Shown here: piece after piece, positions 3,790-10,575 of the stretch
How the letters are laid out: each line of letters starts with the position of its first letter
Position numbering within the stretch: position 1 is the first letter of the stretch
Source: Ignavibacteriota bacterium
Lineage (GTDB): Bacteria > Bacteroidota > Ignavibacteria > Palsa-1295
Reading direction: 5' to 3'
Length of the DNA stretch: 64,000 bases
Assembly (NCBI GenBank): GCA_963787835.1
Contig: CAWBEI010000006.1
Location: forward strand, 128,001-192,000
Made by a program: the position numbers and the translations under genes
The notes under the pieces: model-generated
Seen by the model: the letters and a program-made list of their open reading frames with translations, nothing else
Told to the model about the DNA's origin: nothing
Databases searched by the model: none

Positions 3790-3827
3790 AAGTATAGTAA
3801 ATGTATCTCTAGTGAATGTTTTTATAC

Positions 3828-3953
3828 GTCATTGCGAGGAGAAGAGAACGACCGGAGGGAGTTCGATTCGACGAAGCAATCTCTTCACTGCAAGATTGAG
3901 ATTGCTTCGTCGGAATCACTCCGCTTCGCTCCGTGATTCCAACTCGCAATGAC
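3828..3953. repeat. Palindromic REP/MITE-like element (second type)
   Basis: GTCATTGCGAG...CTCGCAATGAC ends with an inner GACGAAGCAATCT/AGATTGCTTCGTC stem. Confidence 0.8.
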
Positions 3954-3965
3954 ATCGTTATACAT

Positions 3966-4334
3966 TTATGATTCTTTTTCCTGAGACGGTGGCCGCGACT
4001 CCCCTATTTTCTTGAAGATCTCTTCGATATGGGCTACTTCCTCCTGGGTCTGATCTAAATAAAAGAAAAGCTCCGGAGCATAACGCAAACGGATGGCTTT
4101 GGCGACGGCGGCGCGAAGGTGAGGCGCTTCGCTCTTGATCTTCTCGAGTACGCTTGCGCCCGGAGCACTCCCGCCGAGCAGACTCACATAGACCCGCGCA
4201 CTGCGCAGATCCGGAGACATGCGGACTTTGGTGACCGTAATAAGGCCATCCGTAAGGCTGGAAAAATCGGTTTGAAGGGCATGGGCAAGCGCCTGCTGCA
4301 CTTCCCCGCCCACGCGCTCGGTTCGTATTGACAT
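3966..4334 (-). CDS. rbfA: 30S ribosome-binding factor A
   Basis: RTERVG, ITVTKVRMSPDLRSARVYVS and RLRYAPELFF motifs. Confidence 0.95.
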   Translation of the reverse strand: MSIRTERVGGEVQQALAHALQTDFSSLTDGLITVTKVRMSPDLRSARVYVSLLGGSAPGASVLEKIKSEAPHLRAAVAKAIRLRYAPELFFYLDQTQEEVAHIEEIFKKIGESRPPSQEKES

Positions 4335-4402
4335 AATGAAGAAAACAGGAGGATCGGGAGGGCGTTCCTTAGGAATTGCAGAACAGCATATTACCGGAAT
4401 AA

Positions 4403-4410
4403 TATCTTTG
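4403..4410 (+). promoter_or_regulatory. Bacteroidota-type -7 promoter element (TAnnTTTG)
   Basis: TATCTTTG about 80 nt upstream of ATG 4491. The same motif occurs on the minus strand at 44575-44582, 45264-45271 and 46431-46438, each upstream of a gene. Confidence 0.5.
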
Positions 4411-4490
4411 CATATTCATGAAACGAAATGAATGTTCGGGTGTTTTTAAGTCGAGTATTGGTTCGTTTTTAGGATTTGAGGGCAAATGTT

Positions 4491-5258
4491 ATGAAAAAAG
4501 CTTTATTCGCGGTTCTGATGCTTCTCGCTATGACGAGCTGCCTACACGCACAAGCAGTTGACCCAACCTGCCTTGTTCTTTGGCAAAAGGTGTATTACCC
4601 AAACGTGCCCGACAGCCTCATTGATAATTACGATAGTGCGATGGTGGATACATGCAATGATTCGATAGCCATTCACGAGGGTTTACCAGAGATTTATCTT
4701 CAACATTATTGGGAGTTCGTTTTTCAGTACGATATTTTACCACTTGATTCCGTCAATGCAGACAGCACCTTGATTGTCGGTTGGGATGCTATAGATACAA
4801 ACTATCGTGCTACAAGGGATTCTTTCCAAAGAATGGCAGCCAAATATGGTTCGGTTCGACTTCGAAAAGCATTCCCCAATGTCATCGATAGCACGATCCA
4901 ATCATCGAACGCTTTTGCCTTGATATTAGGCTCGTATTACCCAGCGGATTCCGTTCTAAACGATCTATTAAACGTTCCATTAGTTTCCTATGCATGGTAC
5001 GATCACCCTGCACCAGTGGAGATGGTCAACCAAACACAGACTCTCGACGCAATCAAAATTATTTACATTGATCCTTTACATATTCGACTCTCGGGTATCG
5101 AAGAGAGTTGTCCCTATGTTATTTTCGATATTATTGGACGAGAAATAAGTGAAGGTAAAATTGAAGGGTTAGGTATCATAGACTTGACCATTCTTAAGGC
5201 AGGATGTTATTTTGTTTTCCTTAACAATCATATATTACATTTTTTCCGTGAGCCATAA
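4491..5258 (+). CDS. Secreted protein: stand-alone subtilase pro-domain paralog plus T9SS-type CTD
   Basis: Signal peptide MKKALF...LHA-Q. C-terminus IFDIIGREI...IDLTILKAGCYFV is CTD-like. The middle aligns without gaps to the N-terminal region of the downstream S8 protease. Confidence 0.8.
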   Translation: MKKALFAVLMLLAMTSCLHAQAVDPTCLVLWQKVYYPNVPDSLIDNYDSAMVDTCNDSIAIHEGLPEIYLQHYWEFVFQYDILPLDSVNADSTLIVGWDAIDTNYRATRDSFQRMAAKYGSVRLRKAFPNVIDSTIQSSNAFALILGSYYPADSVLNDLLNVPLVSYAWYDHPAPVEMVNQTQTLDAIKIIYIDPLHIRLSGIEESCPYVIFDIIGREISEGKIEGLGIIDLTILKAGCYFVFLNNHILHFFREP

Positions 5259-5288
5259 CCTACCAAATTCTTATTTTAGAACAATCTT

Positions 5289-8200
5289 ATGAAACGTGTG
5301 TCACTGTTTTTCTTACTAATCCTTGGTTTTGCAAGTGGTTTATATGCACAACCATCAACATACCCCCTATACCAGAACATCTTCGGCGCGACCTATCTTA
5401 ATGCTGACTCAGTCAGAGTCGATACGACCACTGGCTCACCTACATTCCATCATCTTTTTGCGAAACGCTATTTTGCAATCTCATTTACTTATGATATCAT
5501 GCCTCTCGACTCAGTATCCTCCGACAGCGTCTTGATTGTTGGTATCAGCGCTATTAACGGTTCATACTCCGTGATCCGAACTCAATTCGATTCACTGCAA
5601 GTAAAGCTCGGAACTATCTCATTTCAGAAGGCATATCCAGCAATCGCCGATAGTACTATTGCTTGTTCAAATGCGTTTGGACTTTTCTTTGCGAATTATG
5701 TCGATGTTGACACTGCTACTTTTTATCTTCAGCAAATTCCACTTACCCATGTTCGATTCGCAAGCATGCCATACGTCAACTGTGTGATCCCAACGGATGC
5801 CGGAATGATACCTGGAACACCTGCTTCTGCACTTCCTCCTGATGGCTCTAACCCACCTTCTGGTTATGCGACAAACTTTCATCCACTTGGGTGGGAATGG
5901 AGTCTCTACAAAATGAAATGCCCAATGGCGTGGGAAATTACGATGGGAAGGCCGGATGTATACATACTTGATGCAGATGATTGGGACTATACAACCCCGA
6001 GCGTCAATGCTGACTTAGTACCTAACTTTAAAACAATCAGCGCAAACACAGATTTGGGTTGGCCTTCTTTACCACTTTACGAAGGACATGGTCATAAGTG
6101 CATTGGTCAGGCTATTGCTGCGGCAGGCAATGGCTATTCTATGGTAGGCGTTGCCCCGAAGTGCAAGGCGCTGGGCATAGGGCACGGCTTCGGTGATCCA
6201 GATTATGAACATATCGACTGCGATGGTCTTAAGAACGGTATTAAAACATACGCAGATGTTATTTATGCTGCTAGCGGTAACCCTGGTGACTTTCTAAATA
6301 TGTTTAATCTCGGCACTGTAGCAACGTTCGCTGCTGGAAATGGGCTTGGACGATTTAATGACGGTTCGGGTGGATCATACCAGGAATACCCGACCGAGTT
6401 TGGACCTTTTGGATGGGGTATTTTCTACATCGACAATAACCCGGCTCACGATATTCCGTTCATTGGTGTTACAATTACTATGGATGGCTTCGATACGTAT
6501 TGCCCGAATGCGTGGTCTTGGTCCAAAGAGGGTGCGGAAACGATTGCAGATTACTACAGTTGGTCTTCAGGGTTGGAGAAATTTGATCAAACCTCTGATC
6601 CAACAATACGTGGACCTTTGAAAGGTCACGCATTCGTTGATCTTGTGGCCCCGGGCCTTGAGGTGCTTTGTGCGTATGGCTCGCCGACTTCCTCTACTTA
6701 CGCAGTCGAAAGCGGCACATCTTTTGCAGCGCCCGAAGTAGCAGGTGTGGCCGCATTGATGAAATCTATCGGCATCAATGGCAATACGCAAGCAAATCAC
6801 TATCTTGGAGTCAACCTTGCAGGGGGAATACCGACGAATGGGGCAGACGTTGAGATGATGGCTCATTTGATTTTAACGTTTACTGCCTATAAGATTGCGG
6901 ACATCTCACGGGACGCAATTGATCCTGGAACTGGAATAGCAATCGCACAGGGGTTCCCTGCAAGTTCAAGCGATGTAGTTTACACTTCGGGTGATCTCGA
7001 TTCTCGTTATGCTAGTGGAACAACACTTACTCCCTGGCAGTATGATTACAATAACAATTCCACGTTTCTGAGTAAAGACGTAGTTGAGCTACCGGGAGAT
7101 GGAATATCTCGAACTCTCAATCGTTCTTGGGCGCAGCGAGTTGGCTTTGGACGGGTAAATGCTTATCGCGCTGTTGCAAACTCGATACCTGTAATCGGAA
7201 ATTACGAATATTCTTCATCCACTCTTCACTTAGGTTTTACTACTGCTGCCGAGAATGAGAACAGCGCGTTCCTAATGCACTTCGGCGCATGGAAAGATGC
7301 AACCCATAAAACTCTTGTAGCTGGCGGAAATATCATTCCTAATCAGAATCTCGTTCCACCTTACGTCGCGTGGCCCCATTTAAATCAAGGGCAGACAGTG
7401 ATTAATAGTGCTAGTGGGACTCCGACAGTTCTCACAGTCGGGGATGACCCTTCCCCGGGCAACTTCGATATTCTCGCAATTGATGGGAACCTGATCGGAG
7501 ACGGTCTTGCAAATAACAAAATCACGACGACGAGCAATGGAAAAATCCTCATAACTGGTTATCTACAAGATGTCGAAGTTACCGGTGCGACGACGAAAGT
7601 CGATGACCTCATAATTTATTCAAGTGGCAGTAATGGCTATAGTAATGTGACTGTTGGAAGTGGCCAGACATCAGAGATCTACGGTGTCGTTCAACTACAA
7701 GATAATGGTAACTTTATTGTCAACGGTGGCACCCTTACCATTCAGCCTGGGGGTGAGATCGAAATGGAGGGAAATAACGGTTTCGACATTCTGAGTGGTA
7801 GCCATGTCATCATGGAGGCAAGCTCAACCATCGCGAATGAATGGGTAAAAGTAGAGAGCGGAGCAACTCTGGAAATAAAGGGTTTACTCCCAGCAAGTAT
7901 TTTCTCGGATTTACTCGTTGAATCTGGTGGACAAGTGATAATTGATGCTGGCGCAACACTGCAACTTGACGAATTTACGGTATATTCAGGTGGGTCGATT
8001 ACTGTCCTGGGTGGTACGGGCACTGGTGGTACTCCAGCACTTCCAGGGGGAAGACTGACATTAAATAAGAGCACAACAAACACATGCCTGGGCACTTTGT
8101 CATTTGAAGGGGTAACAGGCGTGGGCAATCGTTGTACCTTAACAGGTGGCATCTCGGCCTGCGGCCAAGTTGATCAAAATGCTATTATACTTGTAAGGGG

Positions 8201-10085
8201 TTCAACAACCCTTCCTACTCCTTCAACGGATGCAACGATCAACATGGTTTATACCGATGATAGCGATGTGGAGATTAAGGTTCAGGATGCCTTAAAATAT
8301 CCTTTCATTCACGACTGCTTCTCAGCTAACTCATCGTTCAAAGGTACCTCACCGAATTTACCAATCTCGACGATGCTTTACGTGGCAAATTCAGAAGTCT
8401 ATCCTCGCTTATCGGGGGCAAACCCCGAGCTCACCAATATTCAGGTTACGAATTGCCGTTTTTTCGATGAATTAACAGGCACTTATATCATTCCAGCATA
8501 TCACACCATCGATTGTTTTTATGCCTCTAATCTTTATGGGGCCAGCGCTGCTCCCATGCTCATCGCGTACGATACTTTCTATAATGCGCGAATCGGATGC
8601 CAATCCTATCATTGCTCAAATTTGAGGTACAGTTATGATTTAGTCGGGTTGTCTCCTGGTAGCGCCGCCTCCCCGATGCAGCATGGCATTACCGATTATT
8701 CCTCATACGGTGACATCTGCAATTCCTCCATAGAATATTGCGTGGATGGAGGTATCGGTGAATTCAATCATGCCTTTGTTTTCCTCTATGACAATCTACT
8801 CTATGGAAATAGTTATTGGGAACTTACAGCTCAAAATGGCAACAATTGTTGGGTGCGAGGGAATTCATTCTCCACATTTCAGCAATGGGGTGGATGGTCA
8901 TTAGGTGCAGGAAGTTGGATTTACCTATCCGACTTGGTAACAACCGAATATGGAAAAAGTCAATTCCAAACTATAGATGCTGGCAACAGCGCGGATCTTG
9001 TTAGGGGGGGAAATAAAGCCTCTTCCCTTCACGGGGGCGGTTTGTCCATTCAATGTGGGCGTAATTCCTTTGGCTCGACCGAGAGTTGGCACCTCGTTAA
9101 TAACGATCCAGGGTTAGGTACTTACACTATGCCTGTTCAATACAATAATTTTCAGTCTGGCGGCACCGTGCGTCAAATTCGAGTAACGGCGACTGGCACT
9201 CCATTGAATGTCTCTACAACTGACCCTCAGACTAATTGTACAGATGTAATCGATTTAAGTCCGGAATGTACAATTCCGATTGGTAATCCCTACCCTCCAA
9301 CTTCCGAATGGTTTCCAACGGATTCCTCAAGTTCAACCCTAAAAACCGCATTCTGGAACGCGAGAGGAATGCTACTTTCCGATACCAATACCGACGATAT
9401 ACGTATGGCAAGTGCGTCAGACGAAATAGGGCTTGCTGGGTTAATCGATTCATCAGCTACGTATTTGAATCAAGCCCTTGCGGACTTCAACTACGTTCTC
9501 GGGTTGGGGACAACCTTACCTGACCTTAAGAGCAGTTTGTGGATGATGAAAGGCCAAATCTATGAGGAGCAAGGGCTAACAACCTCGGCAATACATTGCT
9601 ATGATACGATCACCTCAAATTATCATCAATACACTGATTCTATTTATGCTGTTTGGTCATTACAGCATCTCGCGCTTCCAAATGATTCAACAAGCAGCTT
9701 CGATTCCTTGCAAAACATCTATGTAACTCGTGTTATCAACGATCTCATCTCGATACAGGATACAATCTCTGGCGGTGGCGGCGAAAAGATGGCGGATGGG
9801 CATCCTATGGCAGATACTACAACGCTACAAGTCACTGTCCATCCGAATCCGGCTTCGGGCATTGTAAAAGTCTGCGTGGCAGATTTACCCGGCGGCATTC
9901 CTGTTGTGGTGAATGTCGTGAACCAAATGGGTGCTTCGGTTGCAACGCTTTATAATGCAACTCCGGAGGCCGAGCTTGGCCTATGCCTATCGCTCGATTG
10001 CTCCATGCTTCCCAGCGGTATCTACTATGCGGATCTCCAAACGGAAGGCACGCACAATGCTGTGAAGTTTACAGTATCACATTAA
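5289..10085 (+). CDS. Large secreted S8 (subtilisin-like) serine protease with beta-rich region, TPR-like segment and T9SS CTD
   Basis: Signal peptide; AWEITMG; ILD (Asp), GHG (His), FAAGNG (oxyanion Asn), SGTSFAAPEVAG (Ser); CTD VHPNPASG...LPSGIYY...KFTV. Confidence 0.9.
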   Translation: MKRVSLFFLLILGFASGLYAQPSTYPLYQNIFGATYLNADSVRVDTTTGSPTFHHLFAKRYFAISFTYDIMPLDSVSSDSVLIVGISAINGSYSVIRTQFDSLQVKLGTISFQKAYPAIADSTIACSNAFGLFFANYVDVDTATFYLQQIPLTHVRFASMPYVNCVIPTDAGMIPGTPASALPPDGSNPPSGYATNFHPLGWEWSLYKMKCPMAWEITMGRPDVYILDADDWDYTTPSVNADLVPNFKTISANTDLGWPSLPLYEGHGHKCIGQAIAAAGNGYSMVGVAPKCKALGIGHGFGDPDYEHIDCDGLKNGIKTYADVIYAASGNPGDFLNMFNLGTVATFAAGNGLGRFNDGSGGSYQEYPTEFGPFGWGIFYIDNNPAHDIPFIGVTITMDGFDTYCPNAWSWSKEGAETIADYYSWSSGLEKFDQTSDPTIRGPLKGHAFVDLVAPGLEVLCAYGSPTSSTYAVESGTSFAAPEVAGVAALMKSIGINGNTQANHYLGVNLAGGIPTNGADVEMMAHLILTFTAYKIADISRDAIDPGTGIAIAQGFPASSSDVVYTSGDLDSRYASGTTLTPWQYDYNNNSTFLSKDVVELPGDGISRTLNRSWAQRVGFGRVNAYRAVANSIPVIGNYEYSSSTLHLGFTTAAENENSAFLMHFGAWKDATHKTLVAGGNIIPNQNLVPPYVAWPHLNQGQTVINSASGTPTVLTVGDDPSPGNFDILAIDGNLIGDGLANNKITTTSNGKILITGYLQDVEVTGATTKVDDLIIYSSGSNGYSNVTVGSGQTSEIYGVVQLQDNGNFIVNGGTLTIQPGGEIEMEGNNGFDILSGSHVIMEASSTIANEWVKVESGATLEIKGLLPASIFSDLLVESGGQVIIDAGATLQLDEFTVYSGGSITVLGGTGTGGTPALPGGRLTLNKSTTNTCLGTLSFEGVTGVGNRCTLTGGISACGQVDQNAIILVRGSTTLPTPSTDATINMVYTDDSDVEIKVQDALKYPFIHDCFSANSSFKGTSPNLPISTMLYVANSEVYPRLSGANPELTNIQVTNCRFFDELTGTYIIPAYHTIDCFYASNLYGASAAPMLIAYDTFYNARIGCQSYHCSNLRYSYDLVGLSPGSAASPMQHGITDYSSYGDICNSSIEYCVDGGIGEFNHAFVFLYDNLLYGNSYWELTAQNGNNCWVRGNSFSTFQQWGGWSLGAGSWIYLSDLVTTEYGKSQFQTIDAGNSADLVRGGNKASSLHGGGLSIQCGRNSFGSTESWHLVNNDPGLGTYTMPVQYNNFQSGGTVRQIRVTATGTPLNVSTTDPQTNCTDVIDLSPECTIPIGNPYPPTSEWFPTDSSSSTLKTAFWNARGMLLSDTNTDDIRMASASDEIGLAGLIDSSATYLNQALADFNYVLGLGTTLPDLKSSLWMMKGQIYEEQGLTTSAIHCYDTITSNYHQYTDSIYAVWSLQHLALPNDSTSSFDSLQNIYVTRVINDLISIQDTISGGGGEKMADGHPMADTTTLQVTVHPNPASGIVKVCVADLPGGIPVVVNVVNQMGASVATLYNATPEAELGLCLSLDCSMLPSGIYYADLQTEGTHNAVKFTVSH

Positions 10086-10104: not shown

Positions 10105-10144
10105 TAACCCGCGCAAGCCGAATTTCTTGCGCGGGTTATTTTTT
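10105..10144 (+). terminator. Rho-independent terminator
   Basis: TAACCCGCGCAAG/CTTGCGCGGGTTA stem followed by a T-run, after the protease stop. Confidence 0.8.
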
Positions 10145-10188
10145 GTCGTATATTGGTGGTGAGTTGATGGGCACCTATATGAATTTTC

Positions 10189-10210
10189 AATTAAGAATTG
10201 AGAATTAAGA
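10189..10210. repeat. Heptamer tandem repeat (AATTAAG-AATTGAG-AATTAAG)
   Basis: An identical 22-mer occurs at 31336-31357. Confidence 0.6.
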
Positions 10211-10575
10211 ATGGGGGCTCGGTGGTTCATTGACAATCGTTGGCGGTAGGTTTCGTTATGAACGAGTCCTTTGAGAAAGCTGATTTTGCATTTCTTCCAG
10301 AACGAACGGCAAAAACAGCTTGGAAACGAGGGTGTGTCGGGAACTCGCAAGAAAAAGAAATGGCACCTATTTCTGGAAGCAAAGCTCCGGCTGTATTTCT
10401 AACAGATAATGGCAGTGTCGTGTTTGAGTGCCCGCCTTATTAGAGCAATATTGCATTTCCTAAGCAAGGTCACACATAATTGCCCAGTTTGTGGGGGTCC
10501 ATTTCGGAACTGAACGGGAAGCGAATCACCTTTATGTGCCAGTCACCGTCGTTGCCGTGACATCCTCCATTATCC

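Follow-up and report, generated by a model that had tools for sequence, protein, structure and literature searches.

The propeptides of subtilases (family S8) act as chaperones and tight inhibitors, and stand-alone versions of them also inhibit (PMC6993865). Free propeptide-like proteins with a gene of their own include Plasmodium SUB1-ProM, POIA1, the yeast proteinase B inhibitor, Arabidopsis SPI-1 and TgMIC5, and the SUB1-ProM gene adjoins subtilase genes, one of whose products it selectively inhibits (PMC6993865). In bacteria, Streptococcus pyogenes carries the gene for the propeptide-like inhibitor Spi beside that of the protease SpeB (PMC2873492), and the Aeromonas sobria subtilase ASP, which has no propeptide, owes its folding, and a transient inhibition, to the product of the adjacent ORF2 (PMC5638518, PMC9549277), much as we infer below for two of our loci. 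In the KLIKK protease/potempin pairs of Tannerella, such as mirolase and PotC, the inhibitor gene lies directly upstream of a protease exported by a type IX secretion system (T9SS) and serves envelope protection (PMC9890683). The general design, represented by SUB1-ProM, Spi and ORF2, is already known. Here we describe a gene pair from a window of 64,000 nucleotides (nt) of an Ignavibacteriota bacterium (assembly GCA_963787835.1, contig CAWBEI010000006.1, positions 128,001 to 192,000, forward strand; genome G000 in our numbering, where L denotes loci and f families). A small gene (4491..5258, + strand), encoding 255 amino acids (aa) from its ATG, is followed after 30 nt by a giant S8 protease gene (5289..10085, + strand; 1598 aa), the spacing given in the initial annotation agreeing with the coordinates of these two open reading frames (ORFs). 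Judging from the sequences, we consider it probable, at about 60%, that the small protein is an in-trans inhibitor of the neighbouring protease and can also chaperone it. In its favour stand observations of homology and position, of the predicted class of fold, of selection and of co-divergence between the small protein and its neighbour.

Residues 75-165 of the small protein align without gaps to residues 63-153 of the protease with 39 of 91 positions identical, which reproduces exactly the count made by hand in the initial annotation, while 200 shuffles gave a mean of 14.7 and a maximum of 19. Gapped BLASTP aligned residues 1-165 to residues 1-153 at 36% identity across 165 columns (E 2e-27). 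Encoded by a separate ORF with its own start, predicted signal peptide and stop, the small protein gave no S8 domain match in a Pfam search, bearing out the earlier statement that it has no catalytic domain. Its Sec signal peptide (aa 1-20, 4491..4550, + strand, cleavage A|Q), also proposed before, is predicted by eye and by a conserved A-Q pair, with A20 present in 76% and Q21 in 80% of 42 small proteins. The possibility of a lipoprotein was rejected, the signal-peptide cysteine not being conserved in homologues; the conserved C27 and C55 lie in the N-terminal extension of the pro-domain copy. This copy comprises aa 21-178 (4551..5024, + strand), and a tail resembling a T9SS C-terminal sorting domain (CTD) occupies aa 179-255 (5025..5255, + strand).

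The protease consists of a signal peptide, its own pro-region (aa 21-165, 5349..5783, + strand) reaching the predicted mature start V166, an S8 catalytic domain (aa 166-635, 5784..7193, + strand; PF00082, E 5e-16), a long passenger region and a T9SS CTD (aa 1517-1595, 9837..10073, + strand; PF18962, E 1.2e-4, below the curated cut-off). The predicted triad is D230/H267/S478, with N351 at the oxyanion position; these D, H and S are invariant in 13 relatives. Among solved structures mirolase matches the catalytic domain best (8ehe, E 1e-18). The L038 protease has GAS in place of the GTS motif and Asp in place of the oxyanion Asn, and its activity may differ.

That the shared segment is the pro-region of the protease, as the initial annotation took it to be, is supported by its position and by a profile that connects it with the pro-regions of ordinary S8 enzymes. 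The large carriers examined are all S8 proteases, and in each the shared domain lies between the signal peptide and a conserved xxPND-like catalytic start, and V166 was placed by this motif together with two proteases in which the signal peptide joins it directly. Similarity between small protein and protease stops at, or a few residues before, the predicted mature start in all eight pairs inspected; V179 of the small protein falls opposite the second residue of the enzyme in its predicted mature form. The profile of the shared segment matched pro-regions of ordinary S8 enzymes of 670-700 aa (hhalign probability 93.9, E 1.6e-7), and one of these linked pro-regions matched PF22148 (Fervidolysin_NPro-like, E 0.002) and PF16361 (Peptidase_S8_N, E 0.003), both below cut-off. 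Moreover, column conservation in 42 small and 30 protease domains is correlated (rho 0.67). The Pfam S8 pro-domain models matched none of 40 family members at E<=1, and the Inhibitor_I9 model gave no match for the small protein of the window or for any of the 40 aligned members.

The pro-domain copy was modelled with a predicted local distance difference test score (pLDDT) of 90.5 as a ferredoxin-like alpha/beta fold, and the structural matches of the model are ferredoxin-like domains with Z 4-6. The PC1/3 prodomain 9fid_D aligned over 68 of 71 residues with Z 4.8 and a root-mean-square deviation of 2.9, a Z not above that of unrelated domains. For the domain, Foldseek found nothing with E<=0.001 and VIA-align nothing that reached Z>=8, and the ESM Atlas gave no usable match; Oskar, the sole match in a PDB sequence search with the pro-domain copy (E~0.02), was taken as chance. 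Position is strong evidence for a pro-domain, and the fold is no more than compatible with one.

The small domain tends to resemble the protease beside it. Of 34 pro-regions compared, the adjacent one comes first in nine of 14 pairs, the window included, and at L098 the neighbour is second, one point behind the orthologue of a sister genome. Small gene and own protease group together nine times in a 72-row tree (a quick search on a short domain, with many open forks), in which the small-gene clade of the window is sister to its protease clade with a support of 95 in the Shimodaira-Hasegawa-like approximate likelihood ratio test; three of the nine groupings recur in a separate bootstrap tree. 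The weak match L044 was left out of the trees as false, and two fragments of less than 100 aa were omitted from the bootstrap tree. In natural pairs the small domain and the neighbouring pro-region are about 33-94% identical. At the DNA level, exact tracts are shared over 408 nt (L028), 332 nt (L121), 245 nt (L109) and 87 nt (L039), and other pairs grade from 94%, 79%, 74% and 67% down to no similarity. The tails of the small proteins align poorly with those of their own proteases (7 of 7 pairs) and the signal peptides mostly differ; at L121 the matched copy has the signal peptide of the adjacent small gene and not that of the protease. We infer that the domain alone has probably been overwritten from the protease gene; kinship alone could not leave 400 identical bases. 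The ratio of nonsynonymous to synonymous substitution (dN/dS) was 0.10-0.45 in eight of 11 small-gene comparisons, the other three having saturated dS, and this places the small gene under purifying selection.

The machinery for a common export route is encoded in G000, where SprA_N, three C25 peptidases (PorU-like) and PorV all score over cut-off, PorV lying beside one of the C25 genes. The CTD of T9SS cargo is removed at the cell surface, to which the cargo may be anchored (PMC4804311, PMC9890683). We suggest that both proteins pass the inner membrane via Sec and the outer membrane via T9SS, and that removal of the tail of about 77 aa near residues 178/179 would leave a protein of propeptide size. 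The trimmed small protein might then mimic the released propeptide, because its end falls near the cut site of the protease's own pro-piece. The free copy could re-plug an enzyme that has destroyed its built-in pro-piece, thus shielding the envelope of the producer, and copying from the protease gene, by gene conversion or repeated duplication, would keep inhibitor and enzyme matched. Folding of the enzyme is also a task of its propeptide, so that in some lineages the built-in piece may have been lost and the free copy would serve as an external chaperone.

Two loci bear on this last step. At L079 (genome G172) a protease of at least 1295 aa has its signal peptide joined directly to the mature start and lies 4 nt behind an intact small gene; at L138 a protease of 1483 aa has the same structure and lies 2 nt behind the small gene. 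Both keep intact D/H/S motifs, and each form is represented by one assembly. The small domains of L079 and L138 are not sisters in the 72-row tree, which suggests separate losses of the pro-domain. A search with residues 1-200 of L079 revealed no further protease of this kind among 590 candidates; 19 of 22 full-length proteins checked have the domain and the other three are cut at the N-end. At L099 (6755-13325), the pro-domain of the protease is split by an intervening ORF into two pieces about 1.1 kb apart. Subtilases generally need their propeptide for folding (PMC6993865, PMC9549277); the known propeptide-less ones are very few, ASP being a named exception to the rule, elsewhere 'one of two' (PMC9549277). 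Because of this need, L079 and L138 appear to be the best sign that the free copy acts in trans.

The same loci invite the explanation that the small protein is mainly an external folding chaperone resembling Aeromonas ORF2, which boosts the maturation of a very large, insertion-rich protease and inhibits it only transiently. The position of the small gene directly upstream of both pro-less proteases, the common export route, the matching of the domain to its neighbour and the ORF2 precedent (PMC5638518) all agree with this. We nevertheless consider it unlikely, as the window protease and eight of the ten paired unbroken proteases keep their own pro-region, a partner without propeptide being seen at L079 and L138 only, and orphan small genes persist where there is no client.

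These orphans appear when the whole family is considered. By its sequence the small protein belongs to an unnamed family of Kapabacteria-like Bacteroidota, with relatives in Ca. Kapaibacterium (L129, L132, L134, L137), Ignavibacteria (L133) and Ignavibacteriota (L138); no description of it was found in the literature searched, which covered few subscription journals. A profile search across 301 genomes of the class matched in 39, in a few cases weakly and to ordinary S8 pro-regions, and gave 516 cluster representatives at E<=0.001; a homologue search with a single sequence found two of 326 candidates. The catalytic profile, searched phylum-wide, matched in six of 401 genomes, all in this class. 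Of our set of 152 proteins (150 listed and two found earlier), 110 have the domain and a tail the size of a CTD; 22 are short or truncated, 11 are full proteases and nine are short pieces of proteases. The small proteins have a uniform architecture of 245-280 aa, with the junction at the pro/mature boundary. Tandem forms with two pro-domains were also seen (L022:11731-12990, of 419 aa; P0005, P0006, P0063 and P0117), and at L084 (7305-8597) the pro-domain is fused to a different region of about 170 aa plus a CTD, giving 430 aa without an S8 domain. Next to the orphan small genes of L031 and L042 stands a gene pair of about 1390 and 370 aa, which is porU-porV-like in size and order only.

The initial annotation proposed a two-gene system, which is not supported in a strict form. 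The pair does recur in at least three families (f1, f4 and f7), but a hand count over 25 distinct proteases that are unbroken and whose upstream DNA is visible, with contig-edge loci and broken genes omitted, gave ten with the small gene directly upstream, and there are many orphans. The annotation held that homologs occurring mostly without S8 neighbours would speak against its proposal, and this is partly what we see, since many small genes have no such neighbour. One of them is the second copy in G000 (C2:400326-401129), which is syntenic with a site in G002 that holds a small gene and a truncated protease. In family f1, small genes occur in 17 of 35 genomes and an unbroken protease in six. 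Arrays of two or three divergent small genes are present in G011, G018, G020, G023, G032 and L121. An intact small gene lies beside a broken protease in G001, G002, G025 and G136, and broken proteases also stand behind small genes at L021, L025, L028, L089, L100 and L105, the breaks at L100 and L105 being frameshifts that could be sequencing errors. At L021, L083 and L089 internal deletions join the protease start to its tail.

Such orphans and arrays could form an immunity collection, in which the giant S8 enzyme is an antagonistic surface enzyme and the orphans guard against the versions of neighbours, like the orphan immunity genes of polymorphic toxins. The divergent arrays, the excess of small genes over unbroken proteases in f1, the intact small genes beside broken proteases and the synteny of the G000 orphan with the G002 site would all fit. 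We find this quite unlikely, since there is no evidence that the protease harms bacteria and no variable toxic tip was seen in it; by target size alone a 4.8-kb gene is lost more easily than one of 0.8 kb, and small genes decay too (L034, L036, L043, L138). It seems more doubtful that the domain has a role independent of this protease, as a surface binding protein or as an inhibitor of the other subtilases of the genome, of which G000 has eight further S8 genes. The stand-alone members (110 of 152), the tandem-domain form of L022 and the L084 fusion would be understandable on such grounds; repeated re-matching to the adjacent pro-domain would not be expected, and the conservation pattern equals that of true pro-domains. 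That the small genes are neutral leftovers of tandem protease duplicates whose middle was deleted is very improbable and largely refuted by selection: deletions from start to tail do occur, as described above, but dN/dS is low, frames stay open at saturated synonymous divergence, the architecture is uniform and the tails are unlike the neighbour's.

Several observations weigh against in-trans inhibition of the neighbouring protease or against its generality. In nine f1 genomes, seven of them at least 93% complete, small genes were present and no catalytic domain of this subfamily was found (five candidates scored per genome), and the own protease is therefore not always the target. The small gene must also be dispensable, as it is missing upstream of 15 of the 25 unbroken proteases. 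It precedes both pro-less proteases and eight of 23 pro-bearing ones, numbers too few for significance, and the small gene of L138 has one in-frame stop before the tail. In four of the 14 pairs the neighbour ranks 3, 4, 5 or 16. In the window itself the pro-domain of the small gene is 38% identical to that of its own protease and 36% to the next best pro-region, and the longest exact DNA common to both genes is 10 nt; by this evidence the duplication is old and the pair has diverged. A recent duplication within G000 was rejected, there being no DNA similarity between the copies. The last 4-6 residues of the domain, which would enter the active site, are usually unlike those of the neighbour. 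The tail of the small protein scored below cut-off with the T9SS CTD models (Pfam E 0.12, TIGR04183 E 0.049), which makes the CTD-like tail of the initial annotation a weak match in this protein, although its homologues at L026, L109, L121, L028 and L079 exceed the cut-off; in a scan of nine other small homologues five were over a cut-off, two under and two without match. Finally, the near-identical tracts could partly reflect assembly collapse, which is countered by the recurrence of L109 in a second assembly (L133) and by the existence of imperfect tracts.

A more ambitious proposal would be a surface propeptide-based protease/immunity system of Kapabacteria-like bacteria that combines four elements: trimming of the small protein by the type IX sortase step to a surface-anchored propeptide, specificity kept by gene conversion, orphan arrays directed against the proteases of neighbours, and replacement of the built-in pro-domain at least twice. 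We put this combination forward as a tentative possibility. If orphan arrays do guard against foreign proteases, this would make them a surface defence of a new kind in Bacteroidota, and the surface-immunity reading, if true, would show how an intramolecular chaperone becomes an external one.

The surroundings of the gene pair have features of their own. The initial annotation mentioned a candidate promoter; no sigma-70-type promoter was found upstream of the small gene, and one TAnnTTTG motif (4403..4410, + strand), which we take to be the Bacteroidota-type -7 consensus, is the sole match in the intergenic region 4335-4490 and a weak candidate, the motif occurring in 9.9% of 1274 upstream regions and in 5.6% of shuffled ones. 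The terminator announced after the pair was found as an intrinsic-terminator-like hairpin (10105..10138, + strand) of 13 pairs with a T run. Directly behind it starts a multi-copy intergenic element (10140-10380), with dozens of copies of 70-87% in G000 and further ones in contigs of other organisms. A palindromic repeat resembling the repetitive extragenic palindromic (REP) type, at 3816-3960, is likewise present dozens of times in G000. From one study, four DNA runs yielded short pieces only and no joint inside the two genes.

A presumed rbfA-like gene (3966-4334) precedes the small gene, and about 22 kb, opening with the small gene and the protease, separate it from a presumed infB (G000:C6:154900-157626). 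The two genes are adjacent in G011 (L022), and in G009 (L035) the same rbfA site holds a small gene plus pro-domain. Elsewhere in G000 (C5:58790-61132) a secreted protein of 780 aa with an HExxH-like motif is encoded, whose last 102 residues are 90% identical to the tail of the window protease (9780-10082), which suggests tail exchange among T9SS cargo. In G009 (L034) the gene cluster of this protein is found among small genes and the remnant of a protease.

In comparison with the systems described so far, free propeptide inhibitors of subtilases have been characterised in fungi, plants and apicomplexans, and this bacterial family, whose natural cognate pairs range in identity from about 33% to 94%, would lend itself as a matrix for the question of what sets propeptide specificity. 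SUB1-ProM and the stand-alone I9 inhibitors are eukaryotic and, in the passages cited, are described as having no significant sequence similarity to propeptides (PMC6993865). In contrast, the family of the window is bacterial, is 33-94% identical to the neighbouring pro-region, has apparently been re-matched at the DNA level and carries a T9SS-type tail. Spi is also bacterial, but SpeB is a C10 cysteine protease and not an S8 enzyme, Spi has no T9SS tail, and the passages on it mention no arrays, conversion or pro-less partners (PMC2873492). ASP is kexin-like (S8B) and its ORF2 lies downstream (PMC5638518, PMC9549277), whereas in the present family the partner can be recognised as a copy of the family's own pro-domain, and both are kept by most members. 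With the two pro-less proteases it becomes testable whether and how a built-in folding chaperone moves to a separate gene. Potempins are beta-barrel outer-membrane lipoproteins of 98-132 aa unrelated to pro-domains (PMC9890683); the small protein, with 255 aa, a predicted alpha/beta fold, homology to the pro-region and a CTD-like tail, is not a potempin. With polymorphic toxin/immunity systems the likeness is one of genomic pattern alone, in the form of orphans, arrays and decay.

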